Origin: Escherichia phage JLBYU24 | DNA length: 64,000 nucleotides | Sequence record: OK272476.1 | Reading direction: 5' to 3' (one strand) | Part shown: positions 30,308 through 36,108 of the stretch, one piece after another | Position numbering within the stretch: the first letter of the stretch is position 1 | How the letters are laid out: each line of letters opens with the position of its first letter | Made by a program: the position numbers and the translations under genes | Notes under the pieces: model-generated | The model's database searches: none | Told to the model about the DNA's origin: nothing | Seen by the model: only the letters and a program-made list of their open reading frames with translations

Positions 30308-30781
30308 TTATTTGAACGATTTAACGTACTGAATAGAACCTTTACTATTCACAAAGGCAATTTTACCATTTTTATTATACATGGTAGCAGTACGTTGATA
30401 ACCATAAGTTTGTTTACCAGATTGATAACCAACTAATGCGAAATTATCTTCGCCCATTTTATTCTGTTTAGCGCGAATGCGTTCATGACCATGTGCCATA
30501 AGAACCTTAGCATCACCAGTTGCAATGGATCGACGAGTTTTTTCATCTTCAACTGTATTAACAAAGTCGTCAAATGAATCAAATTTAGCATGAGATTTAT
30601 TATACAATTTTCCATCTACTGCATAATTATATCCCTGTACATCCATCTCAACTTCTGTACCATCATCCAATACAGCAGTGATTTTTTGACCTTTTTTAAA
30701 TTTCAAAAGATCAGTAAAAGATTCAGCAATAATTTGAGAATTAATAGCTGCTTCAGTGATAAATTCTTGATATGTTTTCAT
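30308..30781 (-). CDS. Internal-protein-like (capsid-targeted) protein
   Basis: 157 aa; N-terminus MKTYQEFITEA matches the T4 internal-protein capsid targeting sequence; located beside denV/e as ipII/ipIII in T4. Confidence 0.7.
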   Translation of the reverse strand: MKTYQEFITEAAINSQIIAESFTDLLKFKKGQKITAVLDDGTEVEMDVQGYNYAVDGKLYNKSHAKFDSFDDFVNTVEDEKTRRSIATGDAKVLMAHGHERIRAKQNKMGEDNFALVGYQSGKQTYGYQRTATMYNKNGKIAFVNSKGSIQYVKSFK

Positions 30782-30790
30782 ATGTTTCCT

Positions 30791-31207
30791 TTAAATGTAA
30801 ATATTTTTACCGTAATACTTATACCAATGTGGTTTCATTAAAATTTTTTCATCAAGTCGTTGTTGACTCAATTTAATAGCTGATTTGCATGGATTATAAT
30901 CATTTTTCCATTCTACTGGAATATCGCTGATGTCAGGAACTTCAGTATCTTTTATACTGAACCCGCGTTTTAAGCATTCCGTTATAATGTCTAATTGACG
31001 CTTTCGCAAAAATTCTAACTTATCGTAAAAGAACGTAACATGACCAGAACCTAAAATAAACTCGGAAGATATTTTAAAATCTTTAACGCGCTTACCGTTT
31101 GCCACATGCTTACGAACTATACCAAAAACACGCGGCAATTCACGGTATTCTGCGATTAAATGTTGATCAGCAAGTTCAGATACTAAAGTCAAATTAATAC
31201 GAGTCAT
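30791..31207 (-). CDS. denV: Endonuclease V (pyrimidine-dimer DNA glycosylase)
   Basis: 138 aa, [17 protein letters not shown]...WYKYYGK recalled as T4 endo V. Confidence 0.9.
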
Positions 31208-31232
31208 TTTATCCCTCCAATTAACTGTGAAT

Positions 31233-31262
31233 ATACTATCACAATTCTAGGAGAAAGTAAAC
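31233..31262 (-). promoter_or_regulatory. Putative T4-type early promoter
   Basis: GTTTAC (31257-31262), 18-nt spacer, TAGTAT. Confidence 0.4.
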
Positions 31263-31266
31263 AACT

Positions 31267-31761
31267 TTATAGATTTTTATACGCGTCCCAAGTGCCAGTT
31301 CTAAACGTAGCAATGACTCGTTTTGCGCGATTAGGTGTTTGATTATACCATCTACTTTTAGCTAAGTTAACTGCTGCTTCATCCCAGCGTTTTTGTTGAA
31401 GCATACGCAAAGAGTTAGTGAATCCAGCTACGCCAGTTTCTCCCATTTGGAAAACCATATTAATTAATGCACAGCGACGAACAGCATCAAGAGAATCATA
31501 AACTGGTTTTAATTTAGCATTTCTCAAAATTCCACGAACAGCAGCATCAACATCCTGATTAAAGAGTTTTTCAGCCTCATCTTTTGTAATTACACCATTG
31601 CAATTACGCCCAATAGCTTTATCTAATTCAGATTTAGCAACACTTAGTGATGGACTTTTAGTAAGCAAATGACCAATGCCAATAGTGTAATAGCCTTCTG
31701 TGTCTTTATAGATTTTAAGTCTAAGACCTTCATCTATACGTAACATTTCAAATATATTCAT
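31267..31761 (-). CDS. e: Lysozyme (endolysin, T4 gene e)
   Basis: 164 aa; [33 protein letters not shown]... differs from recalled T4 lysozyme at only a few residues. Confidence 0.97.
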
Positions 31762-31774
31762 AATACCTCCTAAG

Positions 31775-31795
31775 TATTTATAGAAGGTATTTATA
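31775..31795 (-). promoter_or_regulatory. Two tandem late promoters (TATAAATA) upstream of e
   Basis: Minus-strand TATAAATA at 31775-31782 and 31788-31795. Confidence 0.6.
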
Positions 31796-31798
31796 AAA

Positions 31799-32254
31799 TT
31801 AAAAGAGGTTGTTCATTATTCGGTAAAGTGAAGGACCCATCACATATTGCCACTGAGTACGAGGAATAAGAGCAAAAGCATCCATCTCTGGAATCATAAC
31901 ACCATCTTTATTTTCAAAATAAGACTCACAATAGCAATTTCTGAACATCTCATGCTCTACTGGAATCGTATAATAAAATAACTGTAAGTCTTTATTACTA
32001 GAATATTTAAATACACCTAGGTCTTCTAGAAGGTCTGGATTATAATTGCTAAAACCGGTCTCTTCTAAACATTCTCTTCGTGCTGCATCTAATGCGCTTA
32101 AATCAGAACTTTCTACACGCCCCTTTGGAATATCCCAGCGATGTGCCATCATTCCAGGCTTACGAGAACCAGTAACCCGACCCATAAATAAATCTTTATC
32201 TTCTGTCATAAAGATAATACCAGCTGATAATGTTTTCATTTTAATTTCCTGCAT
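31799..32254 (-). CDS. nudE: Nudix hydrolase
   Basis: 151 aa; Nudix box [24 protein letters not shown]. Confidence 0.85.
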
Positions 32255-32724
32255 TCAGTGATAAAGTTATTTAAATTTTGAGTGTATTTCTTTTCATCAA
32301 AAATCTTTTGCTGTCTGCGTAGCCGCCATGGCATTTCAATGAACACGCACCATATCCCAGATAATATTGCTGCTGTAAAAATATTAACAAGTATGGTTAA
32401 AAGAATCCAATCTCCTATTCTGTCCATTGGATTTTTTATAAAAAAGTAAAATACGAATGATGTCACAGGAAGACTAATAATATACCACAGAATCATAATT
32501 TTATCTGTGAACCAATCAGCGTTCGTTAACTTAGCACGACCATTATGAATACACACGAATTTATCATCTGTTATAATAGATGGCTTAGCTGCTTGATATC
32601 CCATTCTAAACTCCCTAATCAACAAATTTTTCATATCTTCGGAACAACCATTCCAGTCAACTCTATCAACTGAAATGCCATCATCCCCATCATCTAAATC
32701 ATACCAGCGAGTTTTTAAAATCAT
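32236..32724 (-). CDS. Membrane protein
   Basis: 162 aa, two hydrophobic helices. Confidence 0.6.
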   Translation of the reverse strand: MILKTRWYDLDDGDDGISVDRVDWNGCSEDMKNLLIREFRMGYQAAKPSIITDDKFVCIHNGRAKLTNADWFTDKIMILWYIISLPVTSFVFYFFIKNPMDRIGDWILLTILVNIFTAAILSGIWCVFIEMPWRLRRQQKIFDEKKYTQNLNNFITECRKLK

Positions 32725-34666: not shown

Positions 34667-34710
34667 AGCATTTCCTTTAGTTAATTAAGGGTTTTATAAT
34701 CCGTGGGAGT

Positions 34711-34740
34711 ATTATACTCTACTCCCAAGAGTTTGTAAAC
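34711..34740 (-). promoter_or_regulatory. T4-type early promoter
   Basis: GTTTAC (34735-34740), 18-nt spacer, TATAAT (34711-34716). Confidence 0.55.
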
Positions 34741-35073
34741 TTATTCTTCGTCCAATTCATCAATAAATTTATCGATACTACTATTAATAGACTCATCGAT
34801 GATTAACAAAGCATCATCATCTATAATATTAATATTTTCTAAAGCATCAATATAAGCTTGATTGACTATAGACCATGCCCTTTGAAAATATGGGGCTTCA
34901 TCATCAGGACTGAACCAACGTACACCTTCAAAGATACGTTTAGCATAATCCAACACCCATTGTACAGGCATGTTTTGAGAGCGTTCATTAAACTCTTCAA
35001 AGTCCTTAGATTCAAAAAGCTCTTCAGGATAATAATTTCTATTACAAAAAGCTTTACTAAAGTTACGTTTCAT
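34741..35073 (-). CDS. Hypothetical acidic protein
   Basis: ORF track. Confidence 0.6.
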   Translation of the reverse strand: MKRNFSKAFCNRNYYPEELFESKDFEEFNERSQNMPVQWVLDYAKRIFEGVRWFSPDDEAPYFQRAWSIVNQAYIDALENINIIDDDALLIIDESINSSIDKFIDELDEE

Positions 35074-35099
35074 AATGTTCTCCTCAAAGTTATAGGCTC

Positions 35100-35129
35100 A
35101 TAATATCTCAATCATGAGCCTGTGTAAAC
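35100..35129 (-). promoter_or_regulatory. T4-type early promoter
   Basis: GTTTAC (35124-35129), 18-nt spacer, TATTAT. Confidence 0.5.
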
Positions 35130-35393
35130 TTATTTCATATTATTGAAATATTCTTCAGCAATTTCATCATTATCATGATAAACTTTAGAAGACAGTTTAA
35201 CATAACTTTCAGCAGTGAACATGTTAATCACAACCTTTACAGTATACCACTGACCATCTTCATTACCCATTACTGCGTAAGTTTCAAACAACGGATGATC
35301 AGGACCGATAACTTTAATATCATTCACTGTACGACCGAAATCTTCTGAAACACATTTCATAAAGAAGTTGAACAGCTCACCGTAATTATCCAT
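35130..35393 (-). CDS. Hypothetical protein (87 aa)
   Basis: ORF 35130..35456 trimmed to Met at 35393 (MDNYGELF, RBS GGAGA); upstream codons overlie a promoter. Confidence 0.6.
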   Translation of the reverse strand: MDNYGELFNFFMKCVSEDFGRTVNDIKVIGPDHPLFETYAVMGNEDGQWYTVKVVINMFTAESYVKLSSKVYHDNDEIAEEYFNNMK

Positions 35394-35436
35394 TTCATTC
35401 TCCAAGTTGTTTTCTGTATCAGTAGTTGATAGTTGT

Positions 35437-35466
35437 ATAGTACCATGGAAGGACAAGGATGTAAAC
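35437..35466 (-). promoter_or_regulatory. T4-type early promoter
   Basis: GTTTAC (35461-35466), 18-nt spacer, TACTAT. Confidence 0.5.
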
Positions 35467-35600
35467 CGTTTTGTGAAAAAATTTTTAAAAAGTTTTGGGG
35501 AATTCTAGGGCAGGGAGGGGAAATCAAAGGATAGGATAATATATTATAAAGGGTAGAAACTAAATGATGTCTAGAGAGGCCTGGAAAGGCCTAGATACCA

Positions 35601-35630
35601 AAAAGCCCCAACCTTTCGGCTAGGGCTAAG
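35601..35630 (-). terminator. GAAA-tetraloop terminator (copy 1 of a 30-nt repeat)
   Basis: Minus RNA AGCCCUAGCC-GAAA-GGUUGGGGCU then UUUUU, immediately downstream of ORF 35635..36108. Confidence 0.6.
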
Positions 35631-35634
35631 AATG

Positions 35635-36108
35635 TTATTTGATTTGTTTAGCAGACCAAATGCGGTCTTTAATAATTTTTTGGATGTCTTCAACATATTC
35701 AAGAGAGTGAACATGTGGGTTATCTTTGAAACTATAAGCACGAGCTAGCTTTTGGCCTTCAGTTTTAATTACTAAAAGCTCTTTAAGGATAGCTTCATAT
35801 TTGGAGATAATTCCTTTAACAATATTTTTCTCTTGTGCGACTTTAGGATCTGCTTTAGGAGCAGGTTTACCTGAAGCCTTTGCAAAAGCAGCTCCAGTAG
35901 CAACTAAACTTTTCCAGGCCATACTAACTGCATTTCCCGTAAATCCTTCCGCTTTCATATCGCGAGCAAATTGGAATCGTGACTCATCGGAAGCATCTTT
36001 ATAGGAATATTTACCCGCGGCAATGGCAGCTTTTGCAACAGCTTGAATTTCAGTGCTAGATGCTTCATTTAACACCGCTTCATTTAAAAATTGAGCATAT
36101 GATTTCAT
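35635..36108 (-). CDS. Internal-protein-like (capsid-targeted) protein
   Basis: 157 aa; N-terminus MKSYAQFLNEA resembles the IP capsid-targeting sequence; Ala/Lys-rich. Confidence 0.6.
   Translation of the reverse strand: MKSYAQFLNEAVLNEASSTEIQAVAKAAIAAGKYSYKDASDESRFQFARDMKAEGFTGNAVSMAWKSLVATGAAFAKASGKPAPKADPKVAQEKNIVKGIISKYEAILKELLVIKTEGQKLARAYSFKDNPHVHSLEYVEDIQKIIKDRIWSAKQIK

Follow-up and report, generated by a model that had tools for sequence, protein, structure and literature searches.

ORF2 of Escherichia phage JLBYU24, a candidate internal-protein-like gene on a terminator-bounded late cassette beside the tRNA cluster

Internal proteins (Ips), once curiosities, have lately become an established class of injected factors that counter restriction. 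Ip1, Ip2 and Ip3 have only their leader in common and inhibit one GmrSD-type type IV restriction enzyme each, a different one in every case (PMC12373910), IPIII acts in the cytoplasm even without its leader (PMC9391042), and Bas37_0260, a leader-bearing gene of the ipI locus, inhibits McrBC (bioRxiv 10.1101/2025.11.20.689424). In published work the T4 Ips are encoded in two loci. A second described system concerns gene movement: in the promoter-early stem-loop (PeSL) cassettes of RB49/phi1-type phages, repeated stem-loop terminators bracket single ORFans, and recombination between these repeats leads to insertions, deletions and replacements between close relatives (PMC2839356). Here we describe a 64,000-nucleotide stretch of Escherichia phage JLBYU24 (OK272476.1, hereafter the window), in which an earlier note, made from the sequence alone, had pointed to two further genes bearing a capsid targeting sequence (CTS) at separate loci. 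Both open reading frames (ORFs), called ORF1 and ORF2 in the following, are found at the coordinates it gave (Table 1) on the minus strand, encode 157 amino acids (aa) each and begin as it quoted, with MKTYQEFITEA and MKSYAQFLNEA, respectively. While ORF1 corresponds to a known internal head protein, ORF2 is probably targeted by its leader and packaged, and would belong to an internal-protein-like family that has so far gone unrecognised.

The leader carries this reading. T4 IPII and IPIII start alike with MKTYQEFIAEA, to which ORF1 is identical at 10 of 11 positions and ORF2 at 6 of 11, plus the conservative changes T/S, E/Q and I/L. The pattern MK[ST][YF]xx[FLIV][ILV]xE occurs in three of the 509 Met-initiated window ORFs of at least 50 aa, namely ORF1, ORF2 and Ip6. 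A position-weight matrix was built from eight named Ips (T4 IPI–III, RB32 Ip5, Ip7 and Ip9, GiZh IpVI and one Ip of teqsoen), leaving out ORF1, ORF2 and their orthologs to avoid circularity. Among the 509 ORFs, Ip4 (that is, ORF1) scored 36.7 bits on this matrix, Ip6 36.4, Ip5 30.2 and ORF2 16.7, followed by the next ORF with 6.4 and a median of -15.6; the chance of a score such as that of ORF2, fourth of 509, is about 1e-5 per random N-terminus. The earlier note had counted at least four candidate injected proteins, which these top four scores bear out, and its description of both N-termini as IP-like is supported by their alignment with T4 IPI, IPII and IPIII. The ORF2 leader is divergent but clearly non-random.

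Each deviation of the ORF2 leader from the T4 consensus is also found in bona fide Ip orthologs or Ip-locus genes. ORF2-type substitutions occur in IpII of fHe-Yen9-01 (MKSYNEFITEA), IpIII of VP8 (MKTFQEYMNEA) and RB32 Ip7 (...FINEA), and genes of the ipI locus of fHe-Yen9-01 begin with MKTFAQF..., MKTYVEFLSEA and MKTYIEFINE, showing that the canonical Ip leader tolerates these changes. On the DNA level, the leader of ORF2 is identical to those of window Ip4 and T4 ipII at 23-24 of 33 positions, the range among recognised Ips being 21-32 of 33. A cleavage rule of the form [LIVM]xE/[AGST], where the slash marks the cut and which reproduces the published 76-residue mature IPI*, matches the ORF2 leader twice at LNE/A, after residues 10 and 15, as expected of gp21-type sites. 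Pairwise identity among divergent members of the ORF2 family amounts to 52 % in the leader, 45 % in the N-domain and 22 % in the C-domain, so that by alignment the leader is the best-conserved segment of a family whose members are 26-39 % identical.

The predicted mature ORF2 protein has an isoelectric point (pI) of 9.5 with 13.6 % Lys and 17 % Ala and is thus basic and Lys/Ala-rich like T4 IPII (pI 9.56, 15.6 % Lys, 16.7 % Ala) and IPIII (9.65, 13.7 %, 14.2 %). ORF2 furthermore resembles the T-even Ips in its leader of about 10 residues ending in [LI]xE plus a small residue, in its small size, in being non-essential, in occupying a polymorphic locus and in lacking similarity beyond the leader; no homology to other Ip families was found there by Pfam, PHROGs, BLASTP against the co-slot gene described below, or fold searches, and its body shows no homology to Ip1-3. 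It differs from the T-even Ips at five of the 11 leader positions, in the duplicated LNE/A motif and in its location at a third locus beside the rnaC terminator instead of the ipI or ipII/ipIII loci.

ORF2 is a real, translated gene. Compared with four orthologs, its synonymous to nonsynonymous codon differences number 22:2, 14:3, 13:4 and 10:1, which is clear purifying selection. In the study of phage fD1 (PMC8309999, Table S3), liquid chromatography-tandem mass spectrometry (LC-MS/MS) of purified virions found g140, g129 and g146 all particle-associated at a strict threshold (two or more peptides, mean spectral count of 2 or higher); g140 is the ortholog of ORF2 (153 of 157 residues identical), g129 is identical to ORF1, and g146 is the IpI ortholog. 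The AlphaFold model of ORF2 is all-helical and moderately confident, with a mean predicted local distance difference test score (pLDDT) of 76.7, and consists of a disordered leader (residues 1-17, low pLDDT), a three-helix N-domain, a low-confidence AKP-rich linker (AFAKASGKPAPKADPKVAQEK) and a helical hairpin. ORF2 matches phrog_2280 ('unknown function') with E = 9e-61, and its homologs, found also in other genera, reach down to 26 % identity. As a profile search of 1.84 billion representative proteins returned only 13 relatives, the family is narrow. A Pfam scan gave no family for ORF2, only sub-threshold noise, and nothing else would speak for the idea that it is a chance ORF next to a merely duplicated terminator; the peptides of its fD1 ortholog, the strong synonymous excess, the homologs in other genera and the confidence of the model already refute this idea.

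In spite of its wide occurrence, with 511 phage records matched by tblastn, ORF2 is a 'hypothetical protein' in all among the matches listed, and the names in its 216-member cluster are likewise 'hypothetical'. The RB32 ortholog was annotated in 2006 as 'hypothetical protein; flanked by 34 bp imperfect direct repeat' and not as an Ip; the repeat was noticed by the RB32 annotators, the leader was not. A full-text literature search for RB32ORF133c, RB14ORF136, RB69ORF148c and phrog_2280 found no mention. In the RefSeq record of GiZh (NC_054903), no coding sequence is annotated for the ORF2 ortholog at about 7130-7610, while the DNA is identical to the window across the aligned part of ORF2; what is missing there is the annotation and not the gene. 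In several phages ORF2 breaks off behind the linker, and chimeric or frameshifted relatives include P0006, P0008, P0009 and P0014, the latter a metagenomic protein of 94 aa in which an unrelated N-terminus (PF26894) is joined to the last ~32 residues of ORF2. These forms are consistent with frequent recombination and decay at the ORF2 locus.

The earlier note had placed ORF2 between the e.x genes and the tRNA cluster and had seen it bracketed by duplicated terminators, and both points hold: the slot is empty in T4, T2 and T6, and in the window a 36-nt direct repeat, its copies 89 % identical and spaced 555 nt (T2' and T1 in Table 1), forms at either end a 10-bp G+C-rich hairpin, which on the minus (coding) strand is followed by a T-run. 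The two copies are the best terminator-like sites of the region, in which 10 such sites were found against 3.2 expected. T1 is annotated as a terminator in GiZh and present as a single copy in T4 and T2, and the 3' tail of T2' runs on into sequence common with T4. Alignment with T4 yields one clean 555-bp gap bounded by the hairpin repeat, T4 keeping one hairpin with the stem of T1 and the tail of T2'. The note's claim of a novel position holds when measured against the classical T-even phages and existing Ip annotation; it does not extend to the gene itself, which is present in about 500 sequenced phages. Its absence from all three classical T-even phages would plausibly explain how it escaped classical internal-protein biochemistry.

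Read along the coding strand, rnaC is followed by T1 with its T-run, the T4-type late promoter box TATAAATA overlapping the end of that T-run, a 36-nt spacer with a Shine-Dalgarno sequence, and ORF2; T2' lies 7 nt past the stop codon and is followed by the e.8 early promoter. The box is kept in GiZh, teqsoen and UFV13, and no sigma-70-like site was found between T1 and the ORF2 start. Judged by this promoter consensus, ORF2 would be synthesised late in infection. The cassette resembles a PeSL cassette, as a stem-loop repeat flanks an ORFan and the 555-bp indel relative to T4 is accompanied by four states of the slot, whereas it carries a late box (TATAAATA or GATAAATA) where PeSL pairs the stem-loop with a sigma-70 early promoter. 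It therefore acts like PeSL but is not one by definition, given the sigma-70 promoter that this definition includes.

The four slot states are empty, ORF2, RB14ORF136 type and both, and all junctions lie within the hairpins. RB14 carries a different gene of 187 aa, for which the upstream terminator and the downstream tail are the same, whereas the box reads GATAAATA and the hairpin is another one of its own. RB14ORF136 begins with MKTYAEFLTE/AAK, reaches 26.5 bits on the Ip matrix and is found in 165 phage records, all 'hypothetical'. Together with RB69ORF148c-149c it occupies the same slot with the same cassette layout as ORF2 and a CTS-like leader, differing in an N-domain unrelated by BLASTP, its own terminator stem and the GATAAATA box. 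Both proteins fall into phrog_2280, and we considered and rejected plain homology: BLASTP aligns only the first 11 residues (8 of 11 identical), and hhalign detects only a weak similarity of the C-terminal helical hairpin (E = 3.7e-5, probability 71 %). They are better described as mosaic relatives. UFV13, UTI-E4 and VIPECOOM03 carry both genes, in UFV13 in the order rnaC-T1-TATAAATA-ORF2-T2-GATAAATA-RB14 type-T3, and tandem slot arrays are found in UFV13 and fHe-Yen9-01. RB32 Ip7 and Ip9 are likewise annotated as 'flanked by 43 bp direct repeat'. The observed slot states and hairpin junctions are those expected if terminator copies recombine with each other. ORF2 is dispensable and polymorphic among close relatives, being absent from T4, T2 and T6, replaced in RB14 and stacked in UFV13.

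The slot layout also recurs outside Tequatrovirus, in four of five mapped loci of other straboviruses (Klebsiella-phage-type, Yersinia, Cronobacter and one metagenomic), and in each of the six divergent family loci TATAAATA or a one-mismatch variant precedes the gene or its operon by 30-41 nt. In a Klebsiella-phage-type metagenomic contig (L014), whose protein is also found in Klebsiella phage KP01, tRNAs and then a hairpin precede a gene beginning with MKFKEFLAE/AS; the junction GGGGCTTTTTAGTATAAATA with the late box recurs, 41 nt ahead of the ATG. In the Muldoonvirus VP8, a Cronobacter phage (L009), the locus has tRNA-Gly and a hairpin upstream, a TATAAATA box and tandem ORFs starting MKSFTEFLTE/S and MKSFSSFLNE/G, while Yersinia phage fHe-Yen9-01 (Tegunavirus, L015) has a hairpin upstream, a TATAAATA box and an RB14-type gene (MLQYNEFLKE/S) followed by an ORF2-type one (MLEYSEFLKELFCE/A). 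Two metagenomic loci (L017, L018) with tRNAs upstream and the boxes GATAAATA and CATAAATA 32-35 nt upstream carry one ORF2-family member each. Co-variation of ORF2-family leaders with the canonical Ip leaders of the same genome was not supported in fHe-Yen9-01, the slot genes of which resemble each other (MLxYxEFLKE) and not the canonical MK[ST]YxEFIxE.

Small ORFs that are unannotated or 'hypothetical' and bear CTS-like leaders were moreover observed in VP8 (L009:5786-6004, MKSFTEFLTE/S) and fHe-Yen9-01 (L019:15644-15802 and 20056-20292, MKTYIEFINE/I and MKTYVEFLSE/A), some of them beside tRNA genes, which suggests more unrecognised Ip-like genes in other genera.

The site downstream of the tRNA/rnaC terminator could be a third, so far undescribed Ip locus of T4-like phages, in which at least two mosaic families of late, leader-bearing injected proteins (ORF2 and RB14ORF136 types) would be swapped as terminator-plus-late-promoter cassettes; we see the case for this locus, including its conservation across Tequatrovirus, Tegunavirus (fHe-Yen9-01), Muldoonvirus (VP8) and the Klebsiella-phage-type metagenomic contig, as evenly balanced.

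Several observations weigh against ORF2 being an injected protein of the Ip kind. Its 16.7 bits lie below the weakest leave-one-out score of the named Ips (20.8), and hmmscan against PHROGs tied ORF1, but not ORF2, to other Ip families via the leader. Neither sequence scans nor fold searches tie it to any characterised Ip inhibitor; Foldseek of the model against PDB and BFVD returned its own family only and no functional lead. No Ip name was found among the annotations of ~370 cluster members. In the divergent locus L016, the family member is co-transcribed with a membrane protein instead of a CTS protein, which shows that the pairing of leader genes is not universal. The fD1 protein set, finally, has low specificity: besides 672 host proteins, 113 of the 277 phage proteins passed, DenV, lysozyme e and NudE among them. 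Detection of g140 thus shows translation of the ORF2 ortholog and fits packaging, the odds of which it raises only modestly, by about 2.5-fold. A dedicated literature search found no Tequatrovirus virion mass spectrometry, and the fPS-65/fPS-90 paper contains no proteomics.

The same observations could be read to mean that ORF2 is a late cytoplasmic accessory protein that is never packaged, its leader-like N-terminus being an inherited or recombination-derived relic without targeting function. Its leader is the most divergent of the window's four, virion proteomics are unspecific, and annotators have not called it an Ip. A relic should decay, but from Tequatrovirus to Muldoonvirus the leader is the best-conserved segment, and in the ORF2 family its end is invariably [LV]xE plus G, A or S, the distant members all reading [FY]xxF[LV]xE at this place. 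Unrelated co-resident genes (RB14ORF136, the 72-aa ORF of VP8 and the 189-aa ORF of fHe-Yen9-01) bear the same kind of leader, and the conserved late promoter suits a head component. We consider the relic distinctly improbable and packaging via the leader the better account.

We infer packaging, cleavage, injection and an anti-defence target of ORF2 along the following lines. The rnaC terminator would insulate ORF2 from early transcription, late transcription starting from its own TATAAATA promoter. The leader MKSYAQFLNE(AVLNE) would act as a capsid targeting sequence that brings the protein into the prohead scaffolding core, where the prohead protease gp21 may cut it off after Glu10 or Glu15. 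The basic mature protein of about 16 kDa would remain in the DNA-filled head, enter the host with the genome and there most likely neutralise one of the first-line defences of the host, probably a restriction enzyme of the modification-dependent kind (type IV). On the side of the gene, each cassette would bring a 3' hairpin of its own that is akin to the rnaC terminator already in place, cassettes would be added, deleted or stacked as hairpins recombine, and the duplicated terminator would be the footprint of the movement of the ORF2 gene.

Since all four characterised Ips inhibit modification-dependent restriction, the same activity would by analogy be the most likely role of Ip4 and ORF2. 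Bas37_0260 is instructive here, as it is recognised only by its N-terminal signal and without homology to Ip1-3, like ORF2; it differs in belonging to the classical ipI locus and in having its function demonstrated genetically, whereas the role of ORF2 is proposed by analogy only. Its case means that new Ip families found via the leader can be real anti-restriction proteins. We nevertheless regard ORF2 as an anti-defence factor only tentatively, with a confidence somewhat short of even. A packaged protein could instead serve a structural or physical role in neutralising DNA charge, in condensation or as an ejection aid. The basic, Lys/Ala-rich mature ORF2 protein contains an AKP-rich low-confidence linker that recalls histone-tail-like DNA binders, a review of the T4 head describes contacts between internal-protein lysines and DNA phosphates (PMC3012670), and the 45 % pairwise identity of the N-domain across genera is unlike a fast arms-race surface. 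T4, T2 and T6, however, package their DNA normally without ORF2, all four Ips of known function are defence inhibitors, and presence/absence polymorphism together with cassette swapping is typical of accessory anti-defence genes, which renders a purely structural role unlikely.

ORF1, the other gene of the earlier note, is borne out as a CTS gene and, from family profiles and its leader, is assigned to the known internal head protein Ip4. It matches PF24183 (DUF7412) with E = 5.7e-96 and 319 bits (cut-off 27), residues 1-157 covering profile positions 1-158 of 158, and phrog_3155 ('internal virion protein') over its full length with E = 6e-102 and 339 bits. Its orthologs are annotated as Ip4 or ipIV in GiZh, RB32 and RB14 ('similar to T2, RB70 Ip4'), its 90 % cluster bears the names 'IpIV internal head protein' and 'internal head protein 4', and its identical fD1 counterpart g129 (157 of 157) is listed as 'Head protein, PPAP'. 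Synonymous to nonsynonymous codon differences to RB32, RB14, T2 and teqsoen are 14:0, 12:0, 7:0 and 3:0, and the leader contains the prohead-protease-type motif ITE/A.

ORF1 is the same protein as Ip4 of T2, RB70, RB32 and RB14, and only the neighbourhood varies: denV stands beside Ip4 in the window and is absent in RB32, RB14 and T2. Ip4 is placed on the vs.8 side of denV; in T4, by contrast, ipII and ipIII lie between denV and e; teqsoen has an additional Ip at this variable locus, and other relatives carry further combinations. A late-promoter box of its own was not found for ORF1, but the two boxes upstream of e (31775-31795) could plausibly drive its late transcription by read-through, as the minus strand showed no terminator in between. 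The 93-nt stretch downstream of Ip4 (30215-30307) is unusually G+C-rich for this genome (…gggaacaagctggacctcatgattctgtgagggattcccgccaacctgtgataaggtcgagcctgagtgcgg…); Rfam returned nothing for it at E up to 1, nor was it identified as a terminator.

Table 1. Positions of ORF2, ORF1 and accompanying features in the window (slash, predicted protease cut).
Feature	Position	Strand	Remarks
ORF2, 157 aa, candidate internal protein	35635..36108	minus	phrog_2280; ortholog of RB32ORF133c and fD1 g140
ORF2 leader MKSYAQFLNE/AVLNE/A	36061..36108	minus	CTS-like; Glu10 and Glu15 precede the two candidate protease sites
T4-type late promoter box TATAAATA	36145..36152	minus	perfect consensus; 36 nt between box and ORF2 ATG
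T1, upstream hairpin-repeat copy	36150..36185, stem 36159-36182	minus	intrinsic terminator ending the tRNA-rnaD-rnaC transcription unit
T2', downstream hairpin-repeat copy	35595..35630, stem 35604-35627	minus	terminator of the ORF2 cassette; 89 % identical to T1
555-bp cassette (late promoter, ORF2, own terminator)	35595..36149	minus	absent from T4, T2, T6
rnaC (species 1 stable RNA)	36233..36371	minus	closes the tRNA operon; T1 follows directly
ORF1 = Ip4/IpIV internal head protein, 157 aa	30308..30781	minus	PF24183, phrog_3155, annotated orthologs
Ip4 capsid-targeting leader MKTYQEFITE/A	30749..30781	minus	predicted prohead-protease cut after Glu10
denV	30791..31207		ORF1 directly downstream
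Lysozyme e	31267..31761		upstream of denV and ORF1
Ip6, 77 aa, MKTFKEFIAE/S	39426..39659	minus	classical ipI locus; phrog_8111 'internal virion protein', E = 3.3e-51; GiZh ipVI
Ip5, 85 aa, MKTFKEFATKTTITE/S	39736..39993	minus	classical ipI locus; phrog_3499 'internal head protein', E = 1.2e-49

The window is Tequatrovirus DNA with T4-like gene order. Over the 7.1 kb around both ORFs, identity amounts to 99.2 % with Escherichia phage JLBYU31 and to 94-97 % with many further genomes of Tequatrovirus. On the minus strand, the vs genes, ORF1, denV, lysozyme e, nudE, e.2-e.8 and ORF2 are followed by rnaC/rnaD, the tRNA cluster, the tRNA.x genes, two Ip genes and 57B/57A. The coordinates of rnaC were transferred from the T4 and GiZh annotations via alignment; no Rfam model matched rnaC, and around the ORF2 slot Rfam found only tRNAs. 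The two Ip genes are Ip6 and Ip5, the counterparts of the latter being RB32 Ip5 and GiZh ipV. At this ipI locus (39383-40081), a copy of a ~71-nt intergenic unit precedes each of the two genes (copies 61-83 % identical) and the leader-coding DNA is also repeated, a like pattern being found in the Ip7/Ip9/Ip5 array of RB32.

A few further observations concern the surrounding region. A GIY-YIG homing-endonuclease gene (37010..37660, minus) is located between tRNA-Ser (36914..37003) and tRNA-Gly (37665..37738), exactly in place of the tRNA-Pro of JLBYU31, GiZh and T4, and no tRNA-Pro was found anywhere in the window. The N-terminal catalytic half of its product is 83 % identical to T4 SegB over 117 aa and the C-terminal half is unrelated; T4 segB sits elsewhere, between tRNA-Arg and tRNA-Ile. 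The vs.6 ORF (28928..29290, minus), unrelated to ORF1 and ORF2, has a glycyl-radical-type C-terminus, in line with its annotation in relatives, which reads autonomous glycyl radical cofactor (GrcA-like). In the records of T2 (AP018813) and T6 (AP018814), automated product names are unreliable, Ip4 being called 'valyl tRNA synthetase modifier' and e.8 'nuclease', for example. T2 has an additional 116-aa ORF between tRNA-Arg and rnaD, and the T6 record lacks the whole block from vs.3 to denV and Ip4, regB being followed directly by e.

Ip4 itself contributes nothing new, and ORF2 is not surprising in kind. Ips help set the host range of T4-like phages, therapeutic candidates included. If ORF2 and its slot-mate are Ips, two families present in about 500 and 165 sequenced phages are mislabelled as 'hypothetical' and would be candidate new defence inhibitors. 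The cassette structure offers a concrete, testable picture of gene swapping between phages, and if the reading as a third locus is true, the proteins of this slot could neutralise defence systems other than those blocked by Ip1-3.

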